Virus record (IMG/VR): IMGVR_UViG_3300046534_001281
Span: 7,814-71,813 of that record
From: a virus
Strand: one strand, 5' to 3'
DNA: 64,000 bases
Every line of letters starts with the position of its first letter. Position 1 is the stretch's first letter. The notes beneath the pieces were generated by a model that worked only from the letters and a program-made list of their open reading frames with translations, was not told where the DNA came from and did not search any database. Below are positions 33,126 to 50,936 of the stretch, in pieces. A program made the position numbers and the translations under genes.

Positions 33126-33914
33126 ATGAACACAAATAATTTTGACAAAAAAATAAAGAGCATTTTCGAAAATGCTATAGCAACAAGGGACCATACCATC
33201 GAATTGTTTAAAGACACTAGAAGTGGGCGTAAGCTTTCTAAGAAAAAGGCTCAAGAGATTTTTAGTAATACCATTTTAGCTGAATCTGTTTTTAACGTCC
33301 AACTATATGAGGCGGCAGAAACTAGTGATATCCAATTCGAAATCTCAGAACCCGAAAACCCAAATATAGAGTTGTTGGAGTTCTTTGCTGAATCTCTAAG
33401 AACAACTTACCGAGCATTTACACTAGAACAATACACTGTCGAAGAGATGAAGGCTTTTAGAGTATTTGTTGTTTCGGTTGGCGGCGAAATTAAAGAAGCT
33501 GGTTTTGCTTTGAAACCTTATAACGGGGGTGCTCATAGTGAAGTTGTTGCGGTTCATAAAAACCCGTTGTCAGGAAATATTGGTAAAGTTGCCGATGTAT
33601 TCATGAAGGAATCCAAGAGGGAAGGTGGTAAATTTTTAGACCATTTTGATGGGCCACTTTCGAACATTTATGATTTGAATGGATTTAGTGTCTATAAAAT
33701 ATACGAATGGGATGACCAGTATATGCCCGATGGTTGGAACAAGTCAGAAGAAGCAATTAATATTCGTGAACAAAAAACCATTTATAGTCCCTTTGTAGGT
33801 ATTGAAGATGCGGATATTAAGATTGACTACTATAGTTTCAAAGGGTTTTCCTTCGAAAGGAAGTTCGCCCAATACAGAACTGGTGCGGTTGACGTTGTAG
33901 CCCGAAAGATCTAA
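33126..33914 (+). CDS. late GNAT-like protein, putative internal head protein
   Basis: TAATTA-N5-ATG; N-term FDKKIKSIFE; GGKFLDHFDG.LSNIY..NGF..WDDQYMPDGW. Confidence 0.5.
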   Translation: MNTNNFDKKIKSIFENAIATRDHTIELFKDTRSGRKLSKKKAQEIFSNTILAESVFNVQLYEAAETSDIQFEISEPENPNIELLEFFAESLRTTYRAFTLEQYTVEEMKAFRVFVVSVGGEIKEAGFALKPYNGGAHSEVVAVHKNPLSGNIGKVADVFMKESKREGGKFLDHFDGPLSNIYDLNGFSVYKIYEWDDQYMPDGWNKSEEAINIREQKTIYSPFVGIEDADIKIDYYSFKGFSFERKFAQYRTGAVDVVARKI

Positions 33915-33933
33915 AATAAATTACTTTTAACTG

Positions 33934-33963
33934 GACAAGGTAACCTTAATCGGTTACCTTGTC
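33934..33963 (+). promoter_or_regulatory. palindromic early promoter cassette
   Basis: GACAAGGTAACC-ttaatc-GGTTACCTTGTC; -35 TGGACA, -10 TACCTT. Confidence 0.8.
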
Positions 33964-34028
33964 TTCGTTATGAAAAAAGGAACCATTAAACATCTCCGAG
34001 CCACATGCCCAAGAATAAGTCTAAAACA

Positions 34029-34295
34029 ATGACTCGTAGAAAATATATACAGGACTTAATCCATGAGCGGTTGTGTGTATCGGTTAAGTATTCTCCTCTT
34101 ACGGATGATGAGAAAAAACGTTTGAGGGAATTGCGCGGTATCTTAGAAAAGGTAAACGTGTCTCCCAGAATTGTAAATTGGGGTCTTTGGAAGGTTCACG
34201 TTTATCGCTATCCTCGTAGCTGGATTGCTACAATCGGACGGAGACAAATAGGCGGAACAAATCTAAAAGAATTGTTGACTTATCCCAAAAAATAG
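34029..34295 (+). CDS. hypothetical protein
   Basis: Start overlaps (ATGA) the stop of a 20-aa ORF at 33970. Confidence 0.5.
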   Translation: MTRRKYIQDLIHERLCVSVKYSPLTDDEKKRLRELRGILEKVNVSPRIVNWGLWKVHVYRYPRSWIATIGRRQIGGTNLKELLTYPKK

Positions 34296-34312
34296 AGTAA
34301 CTTAAAGTTGTT

Positions 34313-34777
34313 ATGAATGAAAAAGATTTAGATTTAAACCTTGATGGATTCAAGGTTGGGGCGCAACTTGCTGTTGTCAAGATTAAAGGGGGTATCCTAG
34401 AGTATTGCGGTCTACGGAAAATATACTTATGGGATAAACTTATGGGATTTTGGAGAACCGAGGGGAATATGAAAATTCCTGTTGACGGTAAAGGTTATTA
34501 TGCCATGTCTCCAAACAAGAACAAGCCTCATTTTTATTATAGTGCAAATCCTGAGCATATCCTTGCTGCGAAAGATTCTGCTACAAAAGCAAAGGCTATT
34601 CGTATCAAAAAAGATGCGGTAGAATTGGCTCGTTTTAATGAGTTTGAGGGTAAGCTGAATGCTCTTTTGAAGGAGTATGGTGCTGAAATTGGAGCAGAGC
34701 AACTTAGCGGTGATGACCAAGGCGTTGAAGTTGGCTGGTATATTTCTTTAGGAAAAAATAATAAAGAAATGATTTAA
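34313..34777 (+). CDS. early hypothetical protein
   Basis: TTGACT..TAACTT..GTT-ATG. Confidence 0.65.
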   Translation: MNEKDLDLNLDGFKVGAQLAVVKIKGGILEYCGLRKIYLWDKLMGFWRTEGNMKIPVDGKGYYAMSPNKNKPHFYYSANPEHILAAKDSATKAKAIRIKKDAVELARFNEFEGKLNALLKEYGAEIGAEQLSGDDQGVEVGWYISLGKNNKEMI

Positions 34778-34819
34778 ACCATTTTAATCTAGACAAGGTA
34801 GCAATAACGTGTCTTCGTT

Positions 34820-35311
34820 ATGAACGATAAAACACCACAACGTCTCCCGATCTCAGCCGCAAACCGACCAGTGGAGGTCATTAGCTATTGGAAATCCACT
34901 GGGGGATTACTGTTAAACCCCCCTTATCAAAGAGGGGATGTTTGGGGTAAAATTCGCCAAAGAAATTTGATAAGGTCCGTTATTATAGGCATTCCGATTC
35001 CAGCAATTATTATTAATGACCGAGCGAGGGCTGGGTGGGACGAACTAATTGATTGTGCGGTAATCGACGGAAAGCAACGCATGACCGCGATTTTGGATTT
35101 CTTAGAAAGTAAATTGGAAGTGCCCGCTTGTTGGTTCGGTCTTGGGGATGGTAACATGCTGTTTAAAGACCTCCCTATTGGTCGTCAGCGATGTTTTAGG
35201 AGCATACCAATACCCTTTGCCGAAGGTCAATTAGAGAGCTTAGAGGCGGAACAAGAAGTGTTTGAGCTTGTTAATTTCGGAGGAGTGCCGCAAGGGGAGA
35301 GTGATTTTTAA
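34820..35311 (+). CDS. stand-alone DUF262 (ParB/Srx-like) domain protein
   Basis: PPYQRGDVW, IPIPAI, VIDGKQR, FELVN. Confidence 0.85.
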   Translation: MNDKTPQRLPISAANRPVEVISYWKSTGGLLLNPPYQRGDVWGKIRQRNLIRSVIIGIPIPAIIINDRARAGWDELIDCAVIDGKQRMTAILDFLESKLEVPACWFGLGDGNMLFKDLPIGRQRCFRSIPIPFAEGQLESLEAEQEVFELVNFGGVPQGESDF

Positions 35312-35369
35312 ATAAACTCATTTTAATCTGGACAAGGTAGCTTTAATAGGCTACCTTGTCTTCGTTATG
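35309..35369 (+). repeat. stop-promoter-start cassette, copy near-identical to 36564-36625
   Basis: TAA-ATAAACTCATTTTAATCTG-GACAAGGTAGC-tttaatag-GCTACCTTGTC-TTCGTT-ATG. Confidence 0.9.
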
Positions 35370-36566
35370 AACAACGTCACCATCCCAACCAGCCGACTTG
35401 CAGAGTTCAACAAGAACATCCTCAAGCTTAATAAGAAAGCTGCCCGTCTCAACTTTCCTGTAGTCGAGGTTGAAATTGGAGTTCCTCGCTTTGAAACTCA
35501 AATCATCCGTTCTGTATTTGATAAGGATGGAACTGAACATACCGTTGAAGTTGTTGACATCGCTTTCAGTGACGTGTCCCTTGGTTTTGAGGTCTACAAG
35601 CTCATCGGTTTGACTGAAAATGTTGAAGGTATCGATATCCTCCACAACTTCACCGAAGGTCTTGTAGACCTCTCAGAGGAGCGCGGAACATGTGCTTGTG
35701 ATCACTGTAACATCAATCGTCGTCGCAACAAAGTGTTCTTCGTTTCCAAGAAAGGTGAAGATGGTTTCAAGCGTGTTGGTTCGTCTTGTGTCAAGGATTT
35801 CTTCCCATTTGAATCTGGTAATATTCTTCAGCGATTCAACTTCATCGAAGACATCTTCCAATTCTTCAACGATAGCAGAGGCTGGGATTGTTTCGGTGAT
35901 AACACACCAAGAGCATATCGGGTTGACGACATCTTGGCCTTGACATGCCGTTTGGCGCGGGAGGCTGGATACACTTCAGGCAGAAAAGCTGAAGAATACG
36001 GATACCAATCAACCAAGGCACAGGTTTTGGATGTTTTCTTTGACAAGAAGAAAAGCATGGATCTCACCGATGCCGATATCACGAAAGCAGAGCGGATTCT
36101 GGAGTGGTTTAATTCTAATGATGAGGAATCCTCATATTTCGAGAACTGCCGCCAGATCGTCGCTAAGGGCTACTGTGCATCAAAACTGATCGGCTACATC
36201 GTCGGTCTATATGGTGCTTGGAATTACTTCACACAAAAGAAGGAAGCAGCTAAAGCAAATACTTCAAAACATATCGAGAAGACAGGGAAACGTCAGAATT
36301 TCCAAGGTGTTATTGAGTCTGTGAAAACCTTCGAATCTGCGTATGGCGTTGGTTATATCACCAGAGTAAATTGTGACGGCAATGTTGTGATTTACTTCAA
36401 CCAACTCAATATCAAAGATTTCTCTTATTCTGATTTGGAAGACTTCGTAGGACTGGTAGTTAATTTCGATGCCGCTGTCAAGGAACACTCGGAGTTCAAC
36501 GAGGTGAAGCAAACCCAAATCTCAAGAGCTACCAAGGTGAAGTTGCTCGAAGAGGCAACGGTGTAA
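35367..36566 (+). CDS. conserved early phage protein (CDHC Zn motif, C-terminal OB-like domain)
   Basis: CDHCNINRRRN, VGSSCVKDF, VKEHSEFNEVKQTQISR. Confidence 0.7.
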   Translation: MNNVTIPTSRLAEFNKNILKLNKKAARLNFPVVEVEIGVPRFETQIIRSVFDKDGTEHTVEVVDIAFSDVSLGFEVYKLIGLTENVEGIDILHNFTEGLVDLSEERGTCACDHCNINRRRNKVFFVSKKGEDGFKRVGSSCVKDFFPFESGNILQRFNFIEDIFQFFNDSRGWDCFGDNTPRAYRVDDILALTCRLAREAGYTSGRKAEEYGYQSTKAQVLDVFFDKKKSMDLTDADITKAERILEWFNSNDEESSYFENCRQIVAKGYCASKLIGYIVGLYGAWNYFTQKKEAAKANTSKHIEKTGKRQNFQGVIESVKTFESAYGVGYITRVNCDGNVVIYFNQLNIKDFSYSDLEDFVGLVVNFDAAVKEHSEFNEVKQTQISRATKVKLLEEATV

Positions 36567-36625
36567 AATAAACTCATTTTAATCTGGACAAGGTAGCTTT
36601 AATAGGCTACCTTGTCTTCGTTATG
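36564..36625 (+). repeat. stop-promoter-start cassette
   Basis: Direct repeat of 35309-35369. Confidence 0.9.
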
Positions 36626-36829
36626 GAGATCGATTTTTTATACCAGTTGGCGCACCGCCATTTAATGCATATGGATGACCCTTGGCGATGTGATTTTTGT
36701 GATTCGGGGTGTAACTGTGATCAAATAAATCTCGAAGGTTTAGCCGAGGATAACACCAGTCTCTTTCCAGATAAAACCTTACCTGAGGTTATATTATTGA
36801 TTCAAGACAAGTATTTCGATATTTCTTAA
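36623..36829 (+). CDS. small Cys-rich early protein
   Basis: Starts at the cassette ATG. Confidence 0.6.
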   Translation: MEIDFLYQLAHRHLMHMDDPWRCDFCDSGCNCDQINLEGLAEDNTSLFPDKTLPEVILLIQDKYFDIS

Positions 36830-36885
36830 AATATCCCATCTTAATTCTTGACAAATAACGAAAAATAGAATAAGTTCTAATCGTT

Positions 36886-37227
36886 ATGAGAAACAACCTA
36901 CTAGCCAAAGATCGCAAGAGAATCAACAACATCCTTGCCAAGAATGATTTCACTTCAGGTCGTAACCGCTCAAAGTCCGTCTGTGGCGTTATTTCGGTCC
37001 TTACAGAGCTTTTGTCTGATAATGGTATCAGCTTAGACATGATCACTGGAGACCAGCTACTAGCCTCTACGGGGACTCTACGGGCTAGTTTTCGCCCAAC
37101 CCATACGGAACCATTCGAGGAACATCCTCAGTTTGAAAATAGCATCGTTTCTTTCTCTTGGCACACTGATCCTAGAGATGGTCTGGTTGACCTTTCCAAG
37201 GCTGAAGTTGTCGCATACCTTTCCTAA
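36886..37227 (+). CDS. early hypothetical protein
   Basis: Early promoter GTT-ATG; C-term EVVAYLS. Confidence 0.65.
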   Translation: MRNNLLAKDRKRINNILAKNDFTSGRNRSKSVCGVISVLTELLSDNGISLDMITGDQLLASTGTLRASFRPTHTEPFEEHPQFENSIVSFSWHTDPRDGLVDLSKAEVVAYLS

Positions 37228-37260
37228 AATTAAATTTAAATTTAAACTTAAAATATTGTT

Positions 37261-37743
37261 ATGACTACTAAAGAAGAAATGAAGCAAATTCTTTCAGATA
37301 TGCAGACCGATCCAGCCAAATTTGTGGAGCATTTGGCTTCTCTAGTCACTCTATGTGAGGATATCTGTAAAGACCCCGAGCCACCAAAACCTGTTGTGGC
37401 AGAGCGATACGCAATCAGGGTTGCAGATCGCTCCAATAGAACTCACTATTATCTTAGAGGAGCTTTCGCGGGACAAGAGTATTGGACCAAGGATGCGACA
37501 GATCCCTTTATTCTCGTCAGTTCTAAGGAAGGTGCGGAAGCAGCTATTGTGGAACTCGATTCACTAAATCGGGCAGAAATGGTCAAACGAGACTTGGTAA
37601 TTCGCCCAACAAATTATTCAGAATTCATCCCTGCATCTGGAAGTTTTTATATAGAACTGACCAATCCAAAAGAAAGCAACCAAAAGCAACCACCAGAACC
37701 CGATTGTAAGTTCTGTGATGGTGGCCATACTTACGCTGGTTAA
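37261..37743 (+). CDS. early hypothetical protein
   Basis: GTT-ATG start. Confidence 0.6.
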   Translation: MTTKEEMKQILSDMQTDPAKFVEHLASLVTLCEDICKDPEPPKPVVAERYAIRVADRSNRTHYYLRGAFAGQEYWTKDATDPFILVSSKEGAEAAIVELDSLNRAEMVKRDLVIRPTNYSEFIPASGSFYIELTNPKESNQKQPPEPDCKFCDGGHTYAG

Positions 37744-37799
37744 AATAAACTCATTTTAATCTGGACAAACGTTCAAAAATAAGTTAACTTATCTTCGTT

Positions 37800-38318
37800 A
37801 TGAGAATTAAATTTGCAGCAGAGAGTTCACCAAGATTTACTAACCACGGGTGTATTGGTGATGGGTGGGGCGTAGATCTTATCAAGATGGTAAAAGAAGG
37901 TTTGAAGCAAATCACCCACACCCACTCGAAACTTCTAGTCAAAAGCGCACTTCGGAAAGCGATTTCAACTAAAGATCCACACTCTTTCTGGAACGCTCTC
38001 AGTAAGAAGGAAGCTAACCATATTCGCATCGCAGCAAAGCGCATGGTGTCGGGTAGGTATAGCCCAACTCAACTTCTTAATTGGAGGGAAGCTCAATCAG
38101 GGTGTCTCAAAGATTCTCTGGATCATATTTTGGAAATCTTGGCTTACAAATTTGACCACGATTCGTATCTTGCGGATTATGTTCGGGGCTACCGTTTCTA
38201 CGGTATGTCAAATGAGGATGCAACTCTCCGTTTTGAAAAATACCATCAAGGGCTTTTAGATATAGAATACGTTAAAAACGTATACGATGGTGTTAAATAT
38301 TGGGGAAATAAAAAGTAG
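37800..38318 (+). CDS. early hypothetical protein
   Basis: Preceded by a cassette-type promoter 37741-37799. Confidence 0.65.
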   Translation: MRIKFAAESSPRFTNHGCIGDGWGVDLIKMVKEGLKQITHTHSKLLVKSALRKAISTKDPHSFWNALSKKEANHIRIAAKRMVSGRYSPTQLLNWREAQSGCLKDSLDHILEILAYKFDHDSYLADYVRGYRFYGMSNEDATLRFEKYHQGLLDIEYVKNVYDGVKYWGNKK

Positions 38319-38571
38319 GATTAATTATTATGAAAAAACATCAGATTAACGTATGTTTCGAAGACGGGTATATTGTTTTTAGGAATATATACGGAGAGTT
38401 GTTGTGGTCGGAATTTTCCGATGACCTTACGGATTTTCCTGTAGCGGTAGATCTTACTGAAGTAATAGACCGTAAAGACAAATCGGTAGATAGAGTGAAG
38501 AAGTCTGGAAAGTTTGAGATTCAAGCGACTTATAAATGTGGACAAAGAACAAATTAATTTATTTTAATGTG

Positions 38572-38601
38572 GACAAGGTAACCTTAATCGGTTACCTTGT
38601 C
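38572..38601 (+). promoter_or_regulatory. palindromic early promoter cassette
   Basis: Same palindrome as 33934-33963. Confidence 0.8.
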
Positions 38602-38607
38602 TACGTT

Positions 38608-38991
38608 ATGAACAACGTCACCATCCCAACCAGCCGACATAAAATCACTCAAGTCCTTGCTTACATCGATGATGTTTGGGCTTACAACAATCCAGAGATG
38701 TGCGATATGGATAATCCAACTGGTGATATTTATCATCGTCGTTGTTTGATTGTCGCGACTACTGAAGGTGGTCGCCGTTTCATCCTCCAAGATTTTAATA
38801 AAGATCCCGAAGATATTGATAAGGCTGAGTCTTTCGCAAAGCGCATTCTCGCAGTTGGTTCAATTGATTTGGCACGTTGGAACGAGACTTACGAGGTTTA
38901 TGGTTCTTCTGATTGGCAGTTTGCCGACCAGCAACGACAGTTTGCTCATGAGAGCAACCCACACACCAAAGGGACCGTTCGGGATTATTAA
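38608..38991 (+). CDS. early hypothetical protein with N-terminus identical to the 35367 gene
   Basis: Start re-assigned to the cassette ATG; MNNVTIPTSR shared. Confidence 0.65.
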   Translation: MNNVTIPTSRHKITQVLAYIDDVWAYNNPEMCDMDNPTGDIYHRRCLIVATTEGGRRFILQDFNKDPEDIDKAESFAKRILAVGSIDLARWNETYEVYGSSDWQFADQQRQFAHESNPHTKGTVRDY

Positions 38992-39011
38992 AATAAAATA
39001 ACTTTTATCTA

Positions 39012-39041
39012 GACAAGGTAACATTAACGTGTTACCTTGTC
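39012..39041 (+). promoter_or_regulatory. palindromic early promoter cassette
   Basis: GACAAGGTAACA-ttaacg-TGTTACCTTGTC. Confidence 0.8.
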
Positions 39042-39047
39042 TTCGTT

Positions 39048-39503
39048 ATGCAATCAGACAAATACAAAAACTCCAAAGGAGAACAAATCGAATTCGCCAT
39101 GCTTGTGTCCACTCGCCCGAACTTACGGGGTGGGAGACATAGTATGATGTCGCACGTAGGTCTAGGAGCATTGGAGACGATGTTTGACAAGTGTGAGGTT
39201 GACGAAAGTGTAACAAGCCTGAATCTTTTTTACCCCGAACGGTGGACTAACATTTTGGAGCAGAGAGCAATCCCTCTAAAAATGCTAGCGTGCTTCCCGA
39301 ATTTAACCAAAGTTGATATTGAAACCCATTCGGTTTATATTATCCAATCCGTCCATTCTGAGCACATCGGAATCACTGATATGGATTTACAGGAAACCTA
39401 TACCGAAACCTCAAAGATTGAGGTAGAAACTCGATATTGCGAATCCGACAAAGGCGGAAATAACGGGCTGATGGTGTTTGGTGGGTCGATTAGGGGAAAA
39501 TAA
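39048..39503 (+). CDS. early hypothetical protein (degenerate ABC/AAA C-terminal-like motifs)
   Basis: FYPER ... IETHSVYIIQ. Confidence 0.55.
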   Translation: MQSDKYKNSKGEQIEFAMLVSTRPNLRGGRHSMMSHVGLGALETMFDKCEVDESVTSLNLFYPERWTNILEQRAIPLKMLACFPNLTKVDIETHSVYIIQSVHSEHIGITDMDLQETYTETSKIEVETRYCESDKGGNNGLMVFGGSIRGK

Positions 39504-39708
39504 TATGCCATTCATGAGGATTTATAAAGCCGAGGATTTATGGCACAGACATGGTTGTGTTGCTTTAGATACGGCAAAGGAACTAGAGCAACGTATTATG
39601 GGATCTATTGGACCTCCAGATCCACCAAGACATACGATGTGTCCAATTTGTTTTCTTTTCAAAAATAAACTTGACTCTAAATCAAAAATGAGTTAAGTTC
39701 TAATCGTT

Positions 39709-40059
39709 ATGAGAAACAATATCACCACATTAAACCGCTCCGAACTAGTTGGCCTTATCGCTTCCGCTAAAAAGGAAGAAGTTCGCAGATGTGATGCCGA
39801 TTATGCCTCAAGTTTCGAAGGAATTTTGGCTCTTGATGAAAGTGGCGAGCGAGCAGTGGTAGAGCATGTTTACTGGGCTAAGGATGGGCAAGCTTGTCCT
39901 CCAATTAAACTTCTGAAGAAACTCTTCGAAGATTACCCAAAAGCCCACACCTTGTCTATTGAAGGCACTGTAAGATTTCTAGGCGGATATGGTAACATCG
40001 CTACTCAAAGAGAAGAATCTGAGAATGCTGGATATTGGAGCGTTGAAATTAATCGATAA
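39709..40059 (+). CDS. early hypothetical protein
   Basis: TTGACT..TAAGTT..GTT-ATG. Confidence 0.65.
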   Translation: MRNNITTLNRSELVGLIASAKKEEVRRCDADYASSFEGILALDESGERAVVEHVYWAKDGQACPPIKLLKKLFEDYPKAHTLSIEGTVRFLGGYGNIATQREESENAGYWSVEINR

Positions 40060-40113
40060 TAAAGGCAGAAAGTTCTGGACAAATAACCAAAAATAGATTA
40101 ACTTCTAATCGTT

Positions 40114-40305
40114 ATGAGAAACCCAGTTAAACTTACCAAGACCGAAAACGGATACACCGCAACTTTCTTCAAACTATCCCTCGGTCGTGAATACACATAC
40201 AGTATCGTTAAATGCCATGGAAAGGGATACCAGCTTGATGAATTGTATTACGAGACTCTTACCGAAATCAAAACCGACATTTTGTTTTATTCCAAAAGTG
40301 CCTAA
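40114..40305 (+). CDS. small early hypothetical protein
   Basis: TGGACA..TAACTT..GTT-ATG. Confidence 0.6.
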   Translation: MRNPVKLTKTENGYTATFFKLSLGREYTYSIVKCHGKGYQLDELYYETLTEIKTDILFYSKSA

Positions 40306-40350
40306 TAAAATATTGACATTTCGTTAAAAATGAGTTAACTTATCTTCGTT

Positions 40351-40689
40351 ATGAAAAACGAAGTGATTAAACGCAAAGACATCGACGGAGATGATGAACT
40401 AGTCATATTCGTCGAGGATTATTCAGTGACCGCATACCTAGATGTGGGATACAACCACTCGTCCATATCCTTCGGACTGACTTCGGAAATGGATGCTGAC
40501 GTGTCGTGGATGGACACTTTAACAGGACGCGGAGCATTCCGAACAATAGCTCTTTTAAAATCTGCGATCTCCGATTTGATCAGAGAGATTGAGAAAATGG
40601 GTTTTGAATGGAACGTGTCTTGTTGCGAACGTAGGGCAAAACTCTATTCAAGATACCTTCCAGAAGACAAAATTAGAATCGTAAACTAA
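40351..40689 (+). CDS. early hypothetical protein
   Basis: TTGACA..TAACTT..GTT-ATG; RRAKLYSRYL. Confidence 0.65.
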   Translation: MKNEVIKRKDIDGDDELVIFVEDYSVTAYLDVGYNHSSISFGLTSEMDADVSWMDTLTGRGAFRTIALLKSAISDLIREIEKMGFEWNVSCCERRAKLYSRYLPEDKIRIVN

Positions 40690-40730
40690 AGTTTGACAAA
40701 CGTCCGAAGATAAGTTAACCTATCCCTGTT

Positions 40731-41033
40731 ATGAAAAAGATTACTGAACTCAAGTTTGAAGTCGTTGCTGAAATTTTCCACAAAGCATTCGCTGCGTATG
40801 GCCATGGTAGTGTCTGGGATATTAGCTTCACTAGTTGTGGTGAGATCTACATCCACCTTGGAGGCAACGAAAAGGTATTTAAATATACCGATAATCCCGT
40901 CGTTAAAATCCACGAAGGTTTTGTTCGGTTAACCAGCACCGAAGGAGAGGAATTTCGTCTATTGGTTCTAACACCAACCGAATTTGTTTCCAACAATCCA
41001 ATCATCAAAAGAGCAATTGAAGCTCAAAAATAA
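40731..41033 (+). CDS. early hypothetical protein
   Basis: TTGACA..TAACCT..GTT-ATG. Confidence 0.65.
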   Translation: MKKITELKFEVVAEIFHKAFAAYGHGSVWDISFTSCGEIYIHLGGNEKVFKYTDNPVVKIHEGFVRLTSTEGEEFRLLVLTPTEFVSNNPIIKRAIEAQK

Positions 41034-41317
41034 AGATATGGTTAAAGATATTAAAAAAATAGGAGGGGTAATTTCTCTCAAAGAATTAGTAGCCCCTAAT
41101 TATTTTCAAATAGAGGGCGAGGAAGATAAATTATACGTTGTATATCATGATGACAAAACCAACCATCATAAAATCGATGAGTTGGATTTAGACACCTATA
41201 TTAAGAAATCTCTTTTCAGAATTAACTTCAACCCCTCGGAAAAAGTTCAATTAGTTGAAGTTACTTTTGAAGTATAAACGTTGACAAACACAAACCCTCT
41301 GTTAATCTAAAGAAGTT

Positions 41318-41521: not shown

Positions 41522-41551
41522 TCCAACCAAATATATTAAAGTAAAAACACA

Positions 41552-42691: not shown

Positions 42692-42916
42692 ATGAAAAAC
42701 CTACCGAAACGAGTCACCACAGTCACCAAAAAGCTTAAAACCTCCAACCCGTGGGGGTTAGGTGATCGAATTTCAGAAGCTTTTGAAGCCAACTGGGATA
42801 CCGCCGAAAGAGACATTTCCAAACTGTATAAAGAACAGTGGGTTATTGATTTTTGTGAAAAAGTGAATCTGTCGCCTCGTTTCTTTATCAAAAATCTGGT
42901 TGGAATCGCCCTATAA
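42692..42916 (+). CDS. small early hypothetical protein
   Basis: TTGACT-N17-TAAAGT-N6-GTT-ATG. Confidence 0.6.
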   Translation: MKNLPKRVTTVTKKLKTSNPWGLGDRISEAFEANWDTAERDISKLYKEQWVIDFCEKVNLSPRFFIKNLVGIAL

Positions 42917-42934
42917 TATAATTTAAAAAAAATC

Positions 42935-43168
42935 ATGATCACAAAATCAAAAGACATTAACGGAAACTCAATTGCCAAATTCACCAAGAAAGGTGAGCGA
43001 GGGTTTTCTGTCCAAACTTGTGGAAATATGCCAGTCGCACACCGACACTCAAAGGAAAGCTGGAAAGCTGAATTTATGCAACGGAATATTATGGTTGAGT
43101 TGCAGGACTATATTTCACAATTCGGAACAGAACGTCAAAAAAGACTGCTTGGTGTAAAAAGTTCTTGA
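42935..43168 (+). CDS. small hypothetical protein
   Basis: ORF in operon. Confidence 0.55.
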   Translation: MITKSKDINGNSIAKFTKKGERGFSVQTCGNMPVAHRHSKESWKAEFMQRNIMVELQDYISQFGTERQKRLLGVKSS

Positions 43169-43202
43169 CTCTGACCTAAAAATAGATTAAATTATCCCTG
43201 TT

Positions 43203-43433
43203 ATGAAACATTACTACGCAATGAGTTGGAGTCACGGAAGAGCAGCCTGTGCCAATACCGGAAATCGGTATGGTGTTGAATACTACGCATTTTCCCGAAA
43301 AGAAAGGGATGAATGGTGTGAAGATGGTGGAGATTTTACCAGTTCTCCCAATTGGAGAGAGGCAGTCAAGTCAAATGATCCCGAACTTCGTAGGGCTATT
43401 AAAAGCGACGAAGTCCAGTATACCAATAGCTAA
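43203..43433 (+). CDS. small early hypothetical protein
   Basis: Early promoter GTT-ATG. Confidence 0.6.
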   Translation: MKHYYAMSWSHGRAACANTGNRYGVEYYAFSRKERDEWCEDGGDFTSSPNWREAVKSNDPELRRAIKSDEVQYTNS

Positions 43434-43477
43434 TAAACCTTGTCTCTGAATCAAAAATAGGTTAAATTATCCCTGTT

Positions 43478-44143
43478 ATGAAAACAAAAGCAATCCACGC
43501 ATTAGTCGCATCAACAACTCTCATCATGGGGTTGGTTGTATATACAGAAACCACAACCCCAACGGTTAAAGATGTTCCAATTTTGGTTAAGCCGAATATT
43601 AAACCTACCGATATCCCTATTTTGGTTAAACCCAATAGACTCCCTACCGATATCCCTATTTTGGTTAAACCTAATATTAAACATACCAAAATCGACTATC
43701 ATGAAGAAATGATTAAGGGTGTTAAATATTTCGAGGGCTTCCGCTCAAAACCTTACTTTTGCAGCGGAAAAGTGAAAACTATTGGCTATGGCTGCACCGA
43801 TCCTGCAATTACTCGAAAGGGTTATATTTCAGAAAAGGGGGCGGATAAACTTCTACGAAAAACACTCCATAAAATTAGGGTTAGGGTTTTGAAGAGTGTC
43901 GATGTTGATTTGACTGAATGGCAGCTCGCTGCGCTTACCAGCTTCGCCTTCAATGCAGGGATGGGTAGTCTGGAAACATTAATTGGCCAAAAGGATCGCC
44001 TAAATGACGGGAATTATGGTAGCGTTGTTATTGTCATGCCTCTTTATCGAAACGCAGGTGGAAAAATTCGGAAAGGATTGGTCCTCCGTAGAGCTTGGGA
44101 AGTCGAACTTTATGAGGGAAAAATCATTACCGAAAGATCTTGA
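43478..44143 (+). CDS. GH24 lysozyme with N-terminal membrane anchor and 12-aa repeat linker
   Basis: FEGFRSKPYFCSGKVKTIGYG, ALTSFAFNAG, GLVLRR.WE; D[VI]PILVKPN x3. Confidence 0.9.
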   Translation: MKTKAIHALVASTTLIMGLVVYTETTTPTVKDVPILVKPNIKPTDIPILVKPNRLPTDIPILVKPNIKHTKIDYHEEMIKGVKYFEGFRSKPYFCSGKVKTIGYGCTDPAITRKGYISEKGADKLLRKTLHKIRVRVLKSVDVDLTEWQLAALTSFAFNAGMGSLETLIGQKDRLNDGNYGSVVIVMPLYRNAGGKIRKGLVLRRAWEVELYEGKIITERS

Positions 44144-44177
44144 CTCTAGTTCAAAAATAGATTAAAGTCTCTTTGTT

Positions 44178-44498
44178 ATGAAAAACCTCACACCACAAAA
44201 CGAGCAGGACATTTTGACCCTAGTTAAAACTCACATGGACGACACCGTAGGGTTGGAGAATCTTAGCGTGTTACTGGCTCATGGACAGTCCATCAGGGTT
44301 CGCTCCACCCGCAAAATGCCGCCTAAGGATAAAGTGGGTATGTTCGGGTTCTCCTCGGTCGAACAGTGGAAAGCGGAGTGTATTCAGGAGTGGCAGTATG
44401 ACGTGGACGATTTGATCGACAAATTGGACCAAGAACTGGGTATTGATTTTGAACTCGATAGCGTTGGCCCTTCGGGATTCGCTTTAATTACTGTATAA
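44178..44498 (+). CDS. early hypothetical protein
   Basis: Early promoter GTT-ATG. Confidence 0.6.
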   Translation: MKNLTPQNEQDILTLVKTHMDDTVGLENLSVLLAHGQSIRVRSTRKMPPKDKVGMFGFSSVEQWKAECIQEWQYDVDDLIDKLDQELGIDFELDSVGPSGFALITV

Positions 44499-44552
44499 TA
44501 ATCCTTGACTTCGAATCGAAAAAGACTTACATTTGCTTACATTACATTTGTT

Positions 44553-44895
44553 ATGAAAACACTTAGCTACATTATTGAAGACGGAAAACGAATCAAAGCA
44601 CCTGATTCCTTAGAGCATTATTACCACAAAACCGTATGGATTTCGGTTTGAATATCAACGTTACAAATCAATAATGGTTGAACAATATTATAAAGAGAAC
44701 CCAGACCATGAAGCATGGATGGGAATTGACTACGACTGTGGCTATCAGAGCTTTAGCGTGATTGATGCGGCTATTTCTGACGAATTCCCAGACTCATGGA
44801 ACCAGAGAGTCGCTAACACTTGGCCTGATGAAGGCACTTGGGTTATGGTTAAGCGAGGTAAATGGATTCTTCTTTGTAACTTCACTTGGGATTAA
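44553..44895 (+). pseudogene. probable frameshifted early gene
   Basis: Promoter ATG frame stops at 44651; the +1 frame is open from ~44614 into ORF 44674-44895 across an A run near 44628. Confidence 0.4.
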
Positions 44896-44950
44896 AATTT
44901 ATCCGGACAAACCATTAAAAACAATCTAACTTATCTAACTTATCTACGTT

Positions 44951-45442
44951 ATGAAAAATAAAAGAGCCGCAGAAATTCAAGAACGAGTCATTCGATTCAA
45001 AAACAATCAAGATTATATTGTCAGCTTCATGTCAGGGTATGACGTGAATACCACTCAGGATCGTTGGGATAATCGCATACATACATTTACAAAGGAGGTG
45101 TTCGCAACCATTTACAAAACGGTTCCTTACAAAAATACTTTCGGGGTTATTAAAACCAAGAGAGTTTTGGTATCGTCATTTTCAGTTAAGGTTCCTTGTG
45201 ATGAATGTCAATATGAAATCAAGGCTAAACTCATCGACGATTCCGATGAATTCTACGACACCTTGAATAAACGTTTCTGGTCTTTATCTAAAGTTCTTGA
45301 AATTTCATGGATCGATGAGAAGATTAGGGAAAATTTAGATACAGAACTCAATATCCACCACAAAGCAGAAAATCAAAAAATCCACTATGCTATTGGCTGT
45401 GGCGTTGCAGCAGAGCATTTGGAAGAAATCGAAGAATTTTAA
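44951..45442 (+). CDS. early hypothetical protein
   Basis: Early promoter GTT-ATG. Confidence 0.65.
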   Translation: MKNKRAAEIQERVIRFKNNQDYIVSFMSGYDVNTTQDRWDNRIHTFTKEVFATIYKTVPYKNTFGVIKTKRVLVSSFSVKVPCDECQYEIKAKLIDDSDEFYDTLNKRFWSLSKVLEISWIDEKIRENLDTELNIHHKAENQKIHYAIGCGVAAEHLEEIEEF

Positions 45443-45738
45443 AATAAACTCATTTTAATCTGGACAAACCATTAAAAACAATCTAACTTATGAAAAACAC
45501 AAAAACTATTTGGATCGAAAACCTACAACTCTGGCTTGACTGTTGTATCCTACCACAAGATGCAACACAGCCCTCGGTCAATATTATGAATCCTTATAGG
45601 GACGGTGACGGTGATTGGATGGTTATCGTATCAACTAACCACGATTTCCAAACATTATGCTACGAAAGATCACGTAAGCAAAAATAAATTCGTTTTAATC
45701 TGGACAAGGTAACCGAAATAGATTACCTTGTTCTTGTT

Positions 45739-46407
45739 ATGAAAAATCAAAACTTCGCTTCCGTTTCGTCCCTCGCAAATACATACGGAGAAACCAACGA
45801 CTGTGTTGTCAAGGCGGTTAGCCTAATCACAGAGCATCCTTACGAGAGGGCACACAATCACTGCCGTCTTAACGGTAGAGATAGCCATGAAGGTTGTGAA
45901 GCCTTTAAAATGCTCGAAGAGGCTGGTGTTAAGCTTGCTTTAATCTTCCAAAAGACTCGCTATAACAATTGTCCATACGGTAAGACCGTAATGAACCTCA
46001 GTGGTTTCAATCGCAATAAGAAATATATTGCGATTACTTCCGGTCATGCTCTTGCTATTATTAATGGCAAAGTTGAGGATTGGACTGCTACGCGGCAACA
46101 CCGCGTCTTGTGGATTTATGAGTGTGATACCGACAATCTGTCCAATAGCTTCCTCAACACCGAGGAGAGTGTCATAATCAACAAAAAGAAGCGCAAGCCT
46201 AGAGCCTCTCAAATCAGATGGGAGCTTGTTTATGAAAATACCGATGAGCATGGCGATATCATCGAAACTGAAGTTGTTGCTTCTTATAAGCGCAAGCCTA
46301 CGAGAGTTTGGCGTAACATTAAACACACCTTTATAAAGGGTAGGGAGGAGACTTTAGGCAAACTTTGCATCCGCAATCTTGAGGATAATACTTACCATTA
46401 CGGGTAG
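45739..46407 (+). CDS. putative papain-like Cys-His-Asp enzyme
   Basis: NDCVVKAVS ... GHALAIINGKVEDW; preceded by imperfect palindromic cassette 45703-45732. Confidence 0.55.
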   Translation: MKNQNFASVSSLANTYGETNDCVVKAVSLITEHPYERAHNHCRLNGRDSHEGCEAFKMLEEAGVKLALIFQKTRYNNCPYGKTVMNLSGFNRNKKYIAITSGHALAIINGKVEDWTATRQHRVLWIYECDTDNLSNSFLNTEESVIINKKKRKPRASQIRWELVYENTDEHGDIIETEVVASYKRKPTRVWRNIKHTFIKGREETLGKLCIRNLEDNTYHYG

Positions 46408-46448
46408 AAAGTTCTTGACAAAAGAAAAATTTCAATTATGATAAAGAT

Positions 46449-46621
46449 ACGTTCCACCTTATCAGTGGATAGTGGGAGGCGGAAAAACCCACGAAGAAGT
46501 CTGGTGATTTAGACAAACACGCTGTAGGTAATCCTCGCGATAGTAGTAGCGTAAGTGGGCAACGACATTAGTTTAATTACAGTGATATGTATCGTATTCC
46601 TTTTCGAAGGTGTCCACCTAC
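46449..46621 (+). ncRNA. structured 5' leader / small RNA candidate
   Basis: Five consecutive hairpins plus a CCTT-TTCG-AAGG stem-loop, downstream of TTGACA..TATGAT. Confidence 0.45.
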
Positions 46622-46641
46622 TAAATTTTCCCCTAACCAAA

Positions 46642-46851
46642 ATGAAAACACCACAAGTTAGTTGGAGTGAAGTTGAAGCTCCCAAAATCACAGGCAAACG
46701 ACCTACAAGACTCTCCAAAGAGAGGGCTACCGAAATGGCCGAAGAAAACAACCAAAATGACGATGACGGGTGGGTTTATGTCGTTGAACCACTCAATCAA
46801 CATTACGTTGTAACAGTATTTGAATACGAAACATTAATAGGAACACTTTAG
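46642..46851 (+). CDS. small hypothetical protein
   Basis: Start re-assigned after the structured leader. Confidence 0.55.
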   Translation: MKTPQVSWSEVEAPKITGKRPTRLSKERATEMAEENNQNDDDGWVYVVEPLNQHYVVTVFEYETLIGTL

Positions 46852-46855
46852 AATT

Positions 46856-47044
46856 ATGATACAGAAAACTATCAAAGAAACAATCATGGAACGAGATCAG
46901 ATCTCTTCAACCGAAGCTGATGAATTGATCCAAGATGCGGTCGAAGATTTCAGGGAAAATCCTGATGATCCAGAAGAGACTCTACAGGAGTGGTTTGGGC
47001 TGGAACCTGACTGGGTTATTGAGTTCCTTTACCTCACCACTTAA
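46856..47044 (+). CDS. small acidic phage protein
   Basis: IMERDQIS..EA..DPEE.L.EWFGLEPDW; acidic, possible DNA mimic. Confidence 0.6.
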   Translation: MIQKTIKETIMERDQISSTEADELIQDAVEDFRENPDDPEETLQEWFGLEPDWVIEFLYLTT

Positions 47045-47079
47045 ACACAAAGAAATCCGAGCTATAATAAGATCCTCTT

Positions 47080-47628
47080 ATGAAAGAACTAATAAGAAAA
47101 TTAATGGATCGCTCATTCAAAAAGGGGTCAAAATTCGACACATCCTATATTGAGTATAGACTTGAAGAAAGTTTTATAACAAACAATTCTATTAAATTTA
47201 CTTTTGTTGATAAAAATGTTTTTGAAGATGTCGGGTTAGGTAAAACTGTGTGTTTAGGGGTAAGGTCTTTATGTGTCGATAAATTGGATGATCCTGTGGC
47301 AGAGATTGAGTGTGAATTTAAATTGCGAATTATTCAAATGTGTCTTAACCATGAAAGGTTTACCACAACGGACAATTTACCTGAAGCCAAACCCAATCAA
47401 TGGGTGATTAACGGAATTACGGGGGATGTTAAATACAGAATAATTGGCACATCTCCAGCTTTAAAAATATATTGCGGGGATTTCATTTATATGGATAACG
47501 TCAATGTTTATAGGAGTAGATATGCGCATGAACCCCTTACTGGCGACTCGTTTTTATACATTTTAAAAAATAATGGAGATGGTGTGATAAATACACCAAA
47601 GCAAAATAATACGAAAATGCTTGTATAA
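47080..47628 (+). CDS. hypothetical protein
   Basis: ORF 182 aa. Confidence 0.55.
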   Translation: MKELIRKLMDRSFKKGSKFDTSYIEYRLEESFITNNSIKFTFVDKNVFEDVGLGKTVCLGVRSLCVDKLDDPVAEIECEFKLRIIQMCLNHERFTTTDNLPEAKPNQWVINGITGDVKYRIIGTSPALKIYCGDFIYMDNVNVYRSRYAHEPLTGDSFLYILKNNGDGVINTPKQNNTKMLV

Positions 47629-47691
47629 ACAGCCCTCGAATTACAGAAAGTCCTTGACGTAAATCCAAAACCCTGTTAATTTCTCCTCGTT

Positions 47692-47976
47692 ATGATAAAC
47701 CTCACATTCTCTCAAACCAAAGCATTCATCACAATCTGCAAGGCAGAACTTAGCGTTATCGATACGGAGGATAGTTTGTATCCTGACGAGTATTGTGTCA
47801 AGGTGGACAATCCTGAAGATTTCAAGGCTCTCATTGATTCGGGTTTGGTTGGCTCTTGGAAGAATGGAGTTTGTGGTAAAACTACCACCGAAGGCTGGTT
47901 GGCTATGGCCACTAGAAAGGGTATGGAAAAATATCTTGGGGAGGAGTCTTTCCGCGACATTTACAACTGCATCTAA
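47692..47976 (+). CDS. early hypothetical protein (wHTH-like size)
   Basis: Early promoter GTT-ATG. Confidence 0.6.
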   Translation: MINLTFSQTKAFITICKAELSVIDTEDSLYPDEYCVKVDNPEDFKALIDSGLVGSWKNGVCGKTTTEGWLAMATRKGMEKYLGEESFRDIYNCI

Positions 47977-48038
47977 ATTCAGTTTAATACACCTTTTATC
48001 TTGACCCAAACCCAAAATCGTGCTAATCTTTCCTCGTT

Positions 48039-49232
48039 ATGAAAAACCTCCTCTCACAAGAAGATGCCCAAGCAATCGTTTCCAAGGCTAGCAACATCTA
48101 CGGTAGCCGTTTTGGATCAACCCTAGCCAACGTCATTAACGTTCCGCCAGTCTATGTTTCAAAGGTGAAAAAGTTCGCATCATCTGGAGACGTTACAGAC
48201 CTCCCTTCGAAGAATTGCTTCGCCAAGTTCCTCGCTTTCCTCGGCTCTTCTAATAAAGAAGCTCCGATCAAGCCAGCCAACAACCCTAGTAATTCGGCGG
48301 AATATGGTCTCGTAGTTACTCTCAAAAACAAAAAGACCAACCGGTTTGAATCTGGTGTCTCGGTTTCCGATGCGGATCTTAAAGAGCATTACAATGGTGA
48401 TCTTGGCTCGGATTCAGCTTTGACTGATGCGGAGATTTTGAATGAGATTCAAACCAACTTCAATATCGTTCGTCGCTCAGTTTCGTCAATGTTCTCCGAG
48501 AATGGTTGCGTATCTGGCCTCGTAGTGTCCGGTCCCGCTGGTTGCGGTAAGTCCTTTAACATCGAACAGCAGATTAAAGAGGAAGCAGTAAAGGCTGATA
48601 TAGACTTCAAGGTGACCCATCTCAAGGGGGCTAACATGTCCTATACTGGACTGTATTCTCTCCTCTTCAAACATCGCAACGGTGGAGTCATCGTATTTGA
48701 TGACTCCGACAAGCTTTGGGAAGACTCCGACATGCTTAACACCTTCAAGGCTGCAATGGATACGTCCTCAAAGCGTTTCCTTTCTAATGCTAGTGGTGGT
48801 CGCTGGGTTCAAGATTTGGCAGACTCCGAAGGTGTTGAACTTGAGGATGTTCGTGAGTTTGAATTCAAAGCCAAGATCATCTTCATCACCAACAAAGATA
48901 TCGGTGTTCACGTAGAAGCTAAGAAGAAGAACCATGAGCACTTCGCAGCCATCATCGACCGTTCACTCTATATTGACCTTGAGATGTTCTCACTTCGCGC
49001 CAAGTATCTCTGGTGTGAGTATGTCTTCATGGACTTTATCGCACCGCAGTTGGGATTCTCCGATGACCTTACATTGGAAGTGATGGAGTATGTTTCGGAC
49101 AATCGCTACAACCTCCGTGACGTTAGTGTTCGCGGAATTGAAATGATTGCCAAGTTCGCTGCTGATCCTGAGTTCAAAGATGGAGCTTGGAAGACTTTGA
49201 TTCGTAAGACCAAGTTCAAGAAGAACCGCTAA
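48039..49232 (+). CDS. AAA+ ATPase with N-terminal HTH-like region
   Basis: Walker A GPAGCGKS, Walker B IVFDDSD, IFITN, arginine finger IDRS. Confidence 0.85.
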   Translation: MKNLLSQEDAQAIVSKASNIYGSRFGSTLANVINVPPVYVSKVKKFASSGDVTDLPSKNCFAKFLAFLGSSNKEAPIKPANNPSNSAEYGLVVTLKNKKTNRFESGVSVSDADLKEHYNGDLGSDSALTDAEILNEIQTNFNIVRRSVSSMFSENGCVSGLVVSGPAGCGKSFNIEQQIKEEAVKADIDFKVTHLKGANMSYTGLYSLLFKHRNGGVIVFDDSDKLWEDSDMLNTFKAAMDTSSKRFLSNASGGRWVQDLADSEGVELEDVREFEFKAKIIFITNKDIGVHVEAKKKNHEHFAAIIDRSLYIDLEMFSLRAKYLWCEYVFMDFIAPQLGFSDDLTLEVMEYVSDNRYNLRDVSVRGIEMIAKFAADPEFKDGAWKTLIRKTKFKKNR

Positions 49233-49250
49233 ATTTTATCATAACACCGA

Positions 49251-49287
49251 GAATTCCCTTCAGGCTGAGTGGTCTGGAGGGAATTTT
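49251..49287. terminator. intrinsic terminator
   Basis: GAATTCCCTTCAGGC...GTCTGGAGGGAATTTT between convergent genes. Confidence 0.7.
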
Positions 49288-49313
49288 CATTTACTCGAAG
49301 GATCGAAATCGAC

Positions 49314-49973
49314 TTAATTGAGCGGATCGAAAATAACTAAACCTCCGGCGCTGTCAAAACCAAAATTTTCTTCATGGATGTCGTTTTGAGCCACCCCTTT
49401 AATCCCCATTATGGTCTGTCCAAACTCCACCACTTGGGCATATGTCCTACCATACTCCCGAAACAACGCATCTAACTCTTCAATTAAACCCCTATCTTCC
49501 GCAAAACTATCCCCTCTCATGATGTCATGAACAATTTCCTGTAAGTCCATAACTTTAGTGATAGATAATAATTCCCTACCAAATTCATAGTTACGGTCCT
49601 CATCCACCACTAGACGCTCCATAACATATAGTTCAACCTCCTCATCAAGAGAAAGACTTGCGTGTTTTAATATACGAGGGAATAAAGGATTTGATAAACT
49701 CTGCTCCTTGGAAGCAAATGTTTTGAATAGCGGATCATCAAAAGCTAGCTTAACAACATAACCGCCAGATGAACCACTATACACATCAGCAAAACTACCT
49801 CCACCGATCCATTTACCGCCAAGCTTCGTTATATATTCCGAAGCCTTATCCTTCCACTCTGAAGCACTATCAGAACTAAAACGACTCATATCAGTTAAAT
49901 CCTTAATGATCTTATTGGCCAGTGAAAGTCGCTCCTCAATCACAGTTTCGTAATAATCTTTGAATTCACCCAT
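49314..49973 (-). CDS. T7 gp0.7-like protein kinase 1 with CTS-like N-terminus
   Basis: GGGSFADVY, YVVK, YVMERL, DIHEEN, IFDP; TAAATA-N5-ATG at 49973. Confidence 0.8.
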   Translation of the reverse strand: MGEFKDYYETVIEERLSLANKIIKDLTDMSRFSSDSASEWKDKASEYITKLGGKWIGGGSFADVYSGSSGGYVVKLAFDDPLFKTFASKEQSLSNPLFPRILKHASLSLDEEVELYVMERLVVDEDRNYEFGRELLSITKVMDLQEIVHDIMRGDSFAEDRGLIEELDALFREYGRTYAQVVEFGQTIMGIKGVAQNDIHEENFGFDSAGGLVIFDPLN

Positions 49974-50175
49974 ATAACTATTTACCCCAAACAAACACCC
50001 AGATCGAAAAGCGTCAAATCCAGATATATTACAAAGAATCTCCGAAAATGACCCTAGCTGAGATTCACCAAGATTTAAACCACTTCAAGCAAGATGAAGA
50101 AAAAACTGGATTTATGGGATTTAGTTAAAGAAAGATCTTGATTTAAAACCAAAATGGGGTTAAGATCGCCTCGTT

Positions 50176-50724
50176 ATGAAAAACTCCATCACCGCAAACG
50201 AAGAGATCCAAAACTTCATCAAAGATCTTCGCGAAAAGACTGCACTTATTAGCAACATCCACATTTGCCCTGTTTCTAGCTCCGCATCATTTAGCGGTGG
50301 TTACACCCGTATCAATATTGAATTTTACCGCAAGGGTCAACGTTCAAAAGATTTCCGATCATGGGTTTCGGTTGACAAAGACGGGAAGTGGCAAGCTAAA
50401 CTCGAAGCTAAACTCGAATTAGCTAAAATTGAGCTTGACAAAGAGTTTGAACTTCGTGCTGCCCGTGAAAAGGCTATAAATGACAAAAAGGCTAAAATTG
50501 TTACCCTTGTAACCAAATATGGCACACGTTTGGTTGAGTTGGGTGTGTGGTCTTCCATTGAAGCTAGGGGGCCTTCTCGGCACCACAAGTCTAAGATTGA
50601 GGTGCAGGAGTTGTCTTCTGGTGGTCATATTTTAGTATTTCTTGGAAAGAAATTTCCAATCGACAAGTTGGAAGAATTGGCACAGGCAGAGGCAACCGTC
50701 AATGATATTCTTGAAAAGATTTAA
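50176..50724 (+). CDS. early hypothetical protein
   Basis: Early promoter GTT-ATG. Confidence 0.65.
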   Translation: MKNSITANEEIQNFIKDLREKTALISNIHICPVSSSASFSGGYTRINIEFYRKGQRSKDFRSWVSVDKDGKWQAKLEAKLELAKIELDKEFELRAAREKAINDKKAKIVTLVTKYGTRLVELGVWSSIEARGPSRHHKSKIEVQELSSGGHILVFLGKKFPIDKLEELAQAEATVNDILEKI

Positions 50725-50748
50725 AGGAAAATATATCCCCTTTACTTT

Positions 50749-50778
50749 GACAAGGTAACTAAAATGGGTTACCTTGTC
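50749..50778 (+). promoter_or_regulatory. palindromic early promoter cassette
   Basis: GACAAGGTAACT-aaaatg-GGTTACCTTGTC followed by TTCGTT-ATG (31-aa ORF 50785-50880). Confidence 0.75.
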
Positions 50779-50936
50779 TTCGTTATGAAAAACAAAGAAG
50801 CAATCGCAGTCATCATCGCAGAAGGGCGGAAGTCATTCACCGACCCTAAATTAGCTTCAGAAGCGGAACCATCATACTGATGCTGCCAGTCTTCGTGCAA
50901 TGCTTTAAACTTGCACGAGTTAGATTAAATAATACT

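Follow-up and report, generated by a model that had tools for sequence, protein, structure and literature searches.

The stretch of viral DNA studied here (the window, 64,000 nucleotides) comprises bases 7814-71813 of the 71.8 kb IMG/VR record IMGVR_UViG_3300046534_001281, which is estimated to be ~32% complete. It encodes a T4-type portal protein, a gp23 major capsid protein and a gp15-like tail sheath stabiliser, as well as a helicase, an ATP-dependent ligase and NAMPT. Downstream of the structural genes, small accessory genes are separated by spacers of ~55 nt that hold a stop codon, a predicted promoter and the next start codon, and in seven of these spacers the promoter is covered by a palindrome. 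The feature is real, and the spacers are a variant, lacking the Shine-Dalgarno sequence, of the promoter-early stem-loop cassettes (PeSLs) of T4-type phages in a new lineage. The gp23 of the window shares no more than ~32% identity with that of any cultured phage, the top matches being cyanomyoviruses, and a near-identity DNA search against cultured phages gave no match to the window. The phage is a distant, deep-branching T4-like lineage. Contigs at least 99% identical to the window were found in four further runs labelled ice metagenome. The sequences used for comparison include a related 5.9 kb metagenome contig (L032), which was compared in reverse orientation, the closest large relative (G001) and another large phage record of 139.6 kb (G002, locus L038), where no T4 portal or gp23 was detected.

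The pattern GGACAAG-N18-CTTGTC, with one mismatch allowed, matches at 33933, 35330, 36586, 38571, 39011, 45702 and 50748. Its 14 matches are these seven sites, each counted once per strand, where 100 shuffles lead one to expect 0.04; this bears out the seven palindromes described in the original prediction. The palindromes are 30-31 bp long with perfect arms of 9-13 nt, and the three arm variants quoted earlier, GTAACC/GGTTAC, GTAGC/GCTAC and GTAACA/TGTTAC, are all present. As had also been proposed, the AT-rich block upstream begins at the stop codon of the previous gene (open reading frames (ORFs) end at 33914, 35311, 36566, 37743, 38991 and 45442), and direct reading finds TAA in all three of its frames. 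The elements all finish in GTTATG, the ATG of which opens an ORF; two of these ORFs, at 33970 and 50785, encode only 20 and 31 aa, respectively. A blastp comparison at 1e-4 among the genes ending at the AT-rich blocks found no match, so they are not paralogues, and the repeat is therefore a spacer and not a duplicated gene end. Of the site at 21779, formerly listed as related, only the left arm and six complementary bases are shared, and a normal leader follows.

All cassettes lie on the + strand. The first (33912-33972) starts with the stop codon at 33912-33914, has its arms at 33934-33945 and 33952-33963, reaches the ATG at 33970 and folds as RNA at -23.5 kcal/mol (z -7.2). The second (35309-35369; arms 35331-35341 and 35350-35360; -23.2 kcal/mol, z -7.1) precedes a 399-aa cargo gene at 35367-36566 (phrog_2319), and the third (36564-36625) follows it. 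These two copies are identical over 41 nt (35329-35369 and 36585-36625), or ~60 nt by direct reading. Neither Pfam nor the solved structures gave a match for the 399-aa protein, and its atlas neighbours are viral hypothetical proteins only. The fourth cassette (38555-38638) is chimeric and forms a stem of 19 pairs, 38565-38583 with 38590-38608 (-29.5 kcal/mol, z -10). In the fifth (38989-39050; arms 39011-39023 and 39030-39042; -19.7 kcal/mol) an inner C-G pair has become A-U, and the sixth (45685-45741; -16.2 kcal/mol, z -4.4) is imperfect, one position being G.U and another a C.A mismatch. The seventh (50722-50787) has the -35 box TTGACA, and the ORF opened by its ATG at 50785 abuts the ORF at 50880. 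A decayed copy is found at 34775-34822 (+; 34785-34822 in a narrower definition), in which the left arm GACAAGGTAGC is kept and the right arm is gone; compared with the 39011 copy, 8 nt seem to have been deleted. The 163-aa ORF that starts at its ATG (34820-35311) matches only the first part, positions 17-167, of a 417-position GmrSD_N/DUF262-type PHROG profile. Since a palindromic cassette marks its end, it may be a truncated gene.

The seven palindromes are the hairpin-bearing minority of an early-type promoter family with ~28 members. The shared architecture is TTGAC or TGGAC, 17 nt, TAAnnT (TACCTT in the palindromes), 9 nt and ATG. Exact sites of the form TKGAC-N28-32-GTTATG occur 21 times in the forward and never in the reverse direction of the record, and a relative with 69% gp23 identity contains 11 forward and one reverse. 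Looser rules yield ~28 same-strand sites at 31.6-56.4 kb and two more ahead of the NAMPT gene and the ligase gene. The consensus, built from 39 sites of three records, reads TTGAC, a spacer with a conserved A run, TAAnnT, six mostly pyrimidine positions, G, TT and ATG, at fixed spacing. With -35 and -10 boxes ~17 nt apart in these 39 aligned sites, the elements are predicted to be sigma-70-like promoters. Non-palindromic members lie on the + strand between 31583 and 48041, before the ATGs at 31621, 34313, 36886, 37800, 39709, 40114, 40351, 40731, 41318, 42692, 43203, 43478, 44178, 47692 and 48039. Another precedes the ATG at 50138, and beyond the hyperplastic region the ORFs at 7840 and 30127 also have one each in front of them. 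The elements are concentrated downstream of the structural block, and most of their cargo has no Pfam or PHROG function.

For the six distinct copies of the family with the half-site GACAAGGTA, folding energies lie between -16 and -29.5 kcal/mol, each better than all of 200 shuffles; the decayed 34785 copy and two ordinary promoters fold no better than shuffles. As RNA, the + strand is more stably folded than the - strand in nine of ten distinct elements and in all seven elements caught by a fixed rule, compared with 7/32 non-palindromic promoters and 188/400 random 51-mers. The stem positions that are not Watson-Crick pairs are mostly G.U on the sense strand. The sense-strand G.U pairs and the better + strand fold suggest an RNA hairpin in read-through transcripts and fit poorly with a two-sided cruciform.

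Stems unrelated to this family occupy the same position in other promoters. An L032 promoter joins its -35 side to its -10 side by an unrelated stem of 11 bp, after which come five Ts. The promoter at 56341 (56327-56381, +) pairs over ~20 positions with yet another sequence, the block up to and including the -35 box pairing with the -10 box and the bases after it; this fold is imperfect, with G.U pairs (-23.2 kcal/mol, z -5.1 on the + strand; weak on the - strand). Two L038 promoters of the same style, at 850-916 and 14090-14156, are spanned over their whole length by stems of 22 and 19 pairs with the same centre; overall, the unrelated stems at 56341 and L038 span 17-22 pairs. G002, to which L038 belongs, may infect the same kind of host. 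Within the GACAAGGTA family, two extra changes in the 38571 copy each turn a mismatch into a pair and extend the stem to 19 pairs. At the L032 site designated L032rc_2990, the GACAAGGTA hairpin has been retained despite the loss of both the -35 box and the ATG, with a new promoter downstream of it.

Some of these features could be read in another way, namely that a dimeric protein of the phage or the host binds the half-sites GACAAGGTA and TACCTTGTC as an operator and switches a subset of the early promoters. The site spans both the -35 and the -10 box, where repressors classically bind; among eight distinct copies the nine outer pairs show little or no variation, and the half-sites are always 12 nt apart. 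However, each of the wholly different stems at this position would need a different protein, the changes at inner positions are compensated, and the 38571 stem extends beyond the half-sites. Mismatches of the G.U type on one strand only would be irrelevant to the binding of a duplex, and L032rc_2990 keeps its hairpin with no promoter left to regulate. An operator is thus an improbable explanation of the palindromes. The original prediction had favoured a hairpin or cruciform over an operator of fixed sequence; the hairpin part of this view is upheld by the unrelated stems at the same position, the hairpin kept at L032rc_2990, the G.U pairs and two or three compensatory changes. The DNA cruciform is at odds with the G.U pairs and the + strand bias.

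Several observations weigh against the RNA hairpin as a conserved functional part of the promoters, the operator-like invariance of the outer pairs and their constant distance among them. The formal covariation signal is one of these. Within the GACAAGGTA family, 82.5% of cells pair, compared with 24-50% when the partner column is slid, and three pairs have changes in both partners, where shuffles give 1.5 and 29/500 of them reach three; the covariation score is reached by 8/500 shuffles. Seven of 20 pairs never vary, and the change from A-U to G-C counts as one event because it is common to orthologous copies. The arm variants and some double changes named earlier do exist, but as covariation they are weaker than had been implied; the signal inside the family is thin and the formal test modest, and the stronger evidence for a hairpin comes from outside it. 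In addition, G002, the source of the longest stems, is not detectably related to the window phage. A stem-loop in or next to the promoter is found in the seven GACAAGGTA-type copies and at 56341, whereas ~20 of the ~28 promoters have none and G001 has at most one weak hairpin; the hairpin is therefore dispensable. A terminator scan flagged one of the seven sites, the U-tract being weak and interrupted (4-5 U of 8).

The thin covariation and the promoters without a hairpin, those of G001 included, would suit palindromes that have no function of their own, in which a chance near-complementarity between the -35 box and the bases past the -10 box was perfected by template switching during replication and then spread by duplication. 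All GACAAGGTA copies plainly derive from one ancestor, and the 34785 copy has lost an arm and still precedes a gene. Such an origin does not easily account for four or five independent stems of up to 22 pairs at the same position in three records, for a hairpin that outlasted its promoter or for a strand bias opposite to that of the background, and it is considered unlikely.

Like rho-independent terminators, the palindromic elements combine a stable hairpin with a moderately U-rich stretch after it, and plain terminators of the window (3070-3102, 21742-21771 and 57102-57136) have similar stem lengths and loops. They differ from such terminators in that the U-tract is interrupted and the promoter boxes of the following gene supply the hairpin. 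Past the stem the sequence is TTCGTTAT or similar, and the hairpin promoters of L032 and L038 have 4-5 consecutive Ts. Because the tail is only moderately U-rich and the scan flagged a single site, the hairpin is termed an attenuator, and its predicted action relies on analogy with a PeSL stem-loop that terminated transcription in a lacZ assay, as reported by Arbiol et al. 2010 (PMC2839356).

The relatives indicate that gene order has changed at these spacers. Homologues of the window genes 56379, 35367 and 41552 are adjacent in L032 (77%, 69% and 73% nucleotide identity), and all four breaks of homology between L032 and the window fall in promoter spacers: 10 nt before an ATG, at a stop codon with its AT-rich block, just past a palindrome and just before a promoter. 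The comparison of gene order called for by the original prediction thus places the synteny breaks at the elements. The 399-aa gene is flanked by palindromes on both sides in the window and in L032, with different neighbours. In G001, the homologue of 48039 precedes those of 43478-46856 instead of following them. Parts of two other copies are combined in the chimeric 38571 element: its stem-loop is that of the 33933 copy and its 3' flank and first 31 coding nucleotides are those of the 35367 gene, after which the similarity stops abruptly. The near-identical contigs of other runs diverge from the window at 37224-37256 and 37739-37756, the borders of a 160-aa gene (37261-37743), and also at several other gene ends and at five places inside genes; none of their listed loose ends lies inside a palindrome.

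The location of breaks in spacers is partly expected, because little other non-coding DNA exists and any rearrangement that leaves genes intact has to fall there. Breaks occur at hairpin-less promoters too, which suggests that the conserved spacer, and not the hairpin itself, is the likely crossover substrate. Over 31500-51400, the contigs of the four runs contain no joint across 35370-36566 or elsewhere, and being short, of low depth and broken at repeats they are uninformative on circles or deletions, as rare forms do not show up in contigs; three odd joins with inserted letters are too thin to interpret.

The original prediction preferred a different substrate, a DNA cruciform or single-strand hairpin cut or recombined by a structure-specific enzyme in an integron-like exchange. 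The synteny breaks and the chimeric copy at the elements accord with it, as do the two identical copies flanking a single gene. In RB49, mini-circle crossovers were reported to map inside the stem-loop (PMC2839356). Breaks at non-palindromic promoters and the poorer folding of the - strand, from which a two-sided cruciform is not what is conserved, count against this mechanism. A profile search of the whole record with PF00589 and PF00239 found no tyrosine or serine recombinase in these 71.8 kb, ~32% of the estimated genome, while the controls matched, in agreement with the earlier remark that no recombinase is visible. Recombination of such DNA structures is therefore regarded as quite improbable here. 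The array resembles integron attC arrays in its small unrelated genes between imperfect palindromes and in one strand folding better, and it departs from them in that no integrase was found and each cassette carries its own -35 and -10 boxes, whereas integron cassettes are promoterless. The attC sites also have extrahelical bases and core sites; the stems described here are short and perfect and appear to have neither. The description of the array as integron-like is thus not retained, and the analogy is not needed, as ordinary homologous recombination would explain the shuffling.

Searches for further relatives had a limited yield, with G001 and L032 as the only members of the clade. A scan of IMG/VR for the palindrome (five loci) and another for the right arm with the leader (seven loci) returned only unrelated hairpins or coding matches. 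A metagenome scan gave one true relative, L032, and an unrelated terminator-like match (L033), and broader scans with the promoter pattern led only to G001 and G002. Two more candidates, L039 and L040, were rejected as relatives since they looked like chance matches. Protein-guided searches with the 399-aa gene and with the DUF7873 gene of the window found phages outside this group. The three DUF7873 loci among them, with 49-62% G+C, have the usual Shine-Dalgarno leaders and lack this type of promoter.

According to Arbiol et al. 2010 (PMC2839356), a PeSL of phages RB49/phi1 opens with the stop codon of the upstream gene in AT-rich sequence, contains a -35 and a -10 box and closes with a Shine-Dalgarno sequence and a start codon; its stem-loop can take any of five positions, among them those between or over the boxes. 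These elements are enriched among ORFans in hyperplastic regions and stand at indel borders. With these elements the cassettes of the window share the stop codon in the AT-rich block, the sigma-70-like boxes with a 17-nt spacer, the end at a start codon, the stem-loop between or over the boxes, the clustering of ORFans in a hyperplastic region, the location at borders of indels or replacements and the G-T pairs in stems. Every tested sequence feature matches except the Shine-Dalgarno sequence, so that their assignment to stop-promoter-start cassettes of the PeSL kind stands. They differ from the RB49/phi1 elements in that the 3' end has a start codon without a Shine-Dalgarno sequence and the ATG lies 9 nt past the -10 box, one stem of 12-19 pairs covers both boxes, and about a quarter of the promoters have a stem. 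The phage is also far from RB49, with a gp23 ~31% identical to that of any cultured phage.

The occurrence of PeSLs was extended to T4/PST and KVP40/nt-1, and degraded copies were described (Comeau et al. 2014, PMC4122927). The elements of the window resemble these in being composite promoter-terminator motifs of hyperplastic regions, with swapped ORFs adjoining them and degraded 'half' copies. The T4/PST and KVP40/nt-1 elements have their stem-loop immediately before the promoter, with a Shine-Dalgarno sequence after it; in the present group an upstream stem-loop is seen only at 42598-42692 and L032rc_2990. At the former, a hairpin at 42598-42640 stands just upstream of the promoter at 42654, a classical PeSL layout, and has a counterpart in L032 (reverse) at ~4100-4145; the stem differs between the window and L032, and a T.G pair is kept.

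Taken together, the observations are best explained by PeSL-type promoters with an embedded attenuator hairpin, which form ~55-nt spacers between accessory genes and serve as crossover points; the probability of this explanation is put at roughly 60%. The sequences directly show the anatomy of the spacers, their capacity to form hairpins and its strand bias, the chimeric copy and the altered gene order of a relative; promoter activity, the start site, termination and the mechanism of recombination are here what we infer from sequence. Each spacer would contain, in order, a stop codon inside the AT-rich block, the -35 box, 17 nt, the -10 box, 9 nt and the next ATG. In the palindromic copies the -35 side is complementary to the -10 side, and the promoter's own transcript would start past the hairpin. 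A transcript reading through from upstream would fold into a hairpin with 12-19 pairs and a U-rich stretch behind it, and this hairpin would act as an attenuator or terminator that insulates each cassette. The conserved elements, ~60 nt long, would offer crossover points to the ordinary homologous recombination of the phage, by which cassettes are shuffled, and the logic would be the same as for the PeSLs of RB49/phi1, T4/PST and KVP40/nt-1. The placement of the hairpin over the promoter may be explained by the leaderless layout, which leaves no other room.

This layout extends beyond the palindromes. Upstream of the window genes, a Shine-Dalgarno sequence by a strict definition was found in 0/87 cases against 3.8% in the background, and by a loose definition in 4/87 against 15%; in other phages, genes homologous to the DUF7873 gene are preceded by normal Shine-Dalgarno leaders. 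Sigma-70 polymerases usually start transcription seven bases after the -10 hexamer. A conserved purine sits at this distance, 3 nt before the ATG, and since this is the usual sigma-70 start, it is the predicted start here, which would give a leader of 3 nt and a near-leaderless mRNA. The window has 41 occurrences of ATAA[AT]TA, a motif resembling late promoters. This motif is followed at exactly 5 nt by the ATG of an ORF of at least 60 aa in 17 cases, and at any other distance of 0-12 nt in none; the ORFs concerned include the portal and gp15-like genes (examples are 15357(-), 17238(-), 19241, 27642, 28376, 58394 and 61589). The placing of late starts is based on the geometry of T4 late promoters, by which the late mRNAs would start at the A of the ATG. 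The fusion of late-type motifs to start codons suggests a largely leaderless phage. A literature search on leaderless T4-like phages and late promoters found no description of such a phage.

A more far-reaching version of the PeSL-type explanation can be put forward only tentatively and is doubtful as a whole. In it, nearly all genes would be expressed from leaderless mRNAs or mRNAs with 3-nt leaders, and the ~55-nt spacers would be modules of frame-independent expression and insulation. The terminator hairpins would be forced over the promoter, the palindromic promoters would be the preferred crossover points, and the whole would be a cassette system without a recombinase. The proposed leaderless layout, for the phage as a whole, is the more surprising of the leads obtained.

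Other features of the window were also recorded. The genes at 27642, 28376, 58394, 60160, 60536 and 61589 start with MxKFK(E/T)F, most of them directly after the late-type motif, and this start is reminiscent of the N-terminal capsid-targeting peptide common to T4 internal proteins. At gathering thresholds, Rfam gave no match in the window; below them, 42446-42569 (+) matches the Y RNA-like family YrlA (RF02553) with 33 bits against a gathering score of 69 and a local E-value of 1e-5. This region, with tRNA-like D- and T-arms, sits in a 390-nt gap after the DUF7873 gene (41552-42301) and is conserved in L032, and contigs of three runs diverge inside it at 42534. Four paralogues of ~220 aa, 34-38% identical, are encoded on the - strand at 49314-49994, 51239-51880, 54836-55531 and 57166-57858, interleaved with + strand genes; the one that was searched has no Pfam match. 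Three tandem 39-nt repeats (43571-43693) lie in the N-terminal part of a lysozyme-domain gene (43478-44143), and dispersed and tandem repeats of ~80 nt are found near the window end (63100-63913).

The cassettes extend the idea of PeSLs, portable promoter-terminator spacers that drive a modular exchange of genes, to a T4-like lineage whose distance from T4 is similar to that of the cyanophages. They are also a case of extreme compaction, with stop codon, promoter, hairpin and start codon in ~55 nt and the hairpin made of the promoter boxes themselves. If the leaderless reading is true, the position of the promoter alone would set the start of translation. This would bear on how accessory genes can be moved between phages with their expression kept, and on gene calling in uncultured phages.

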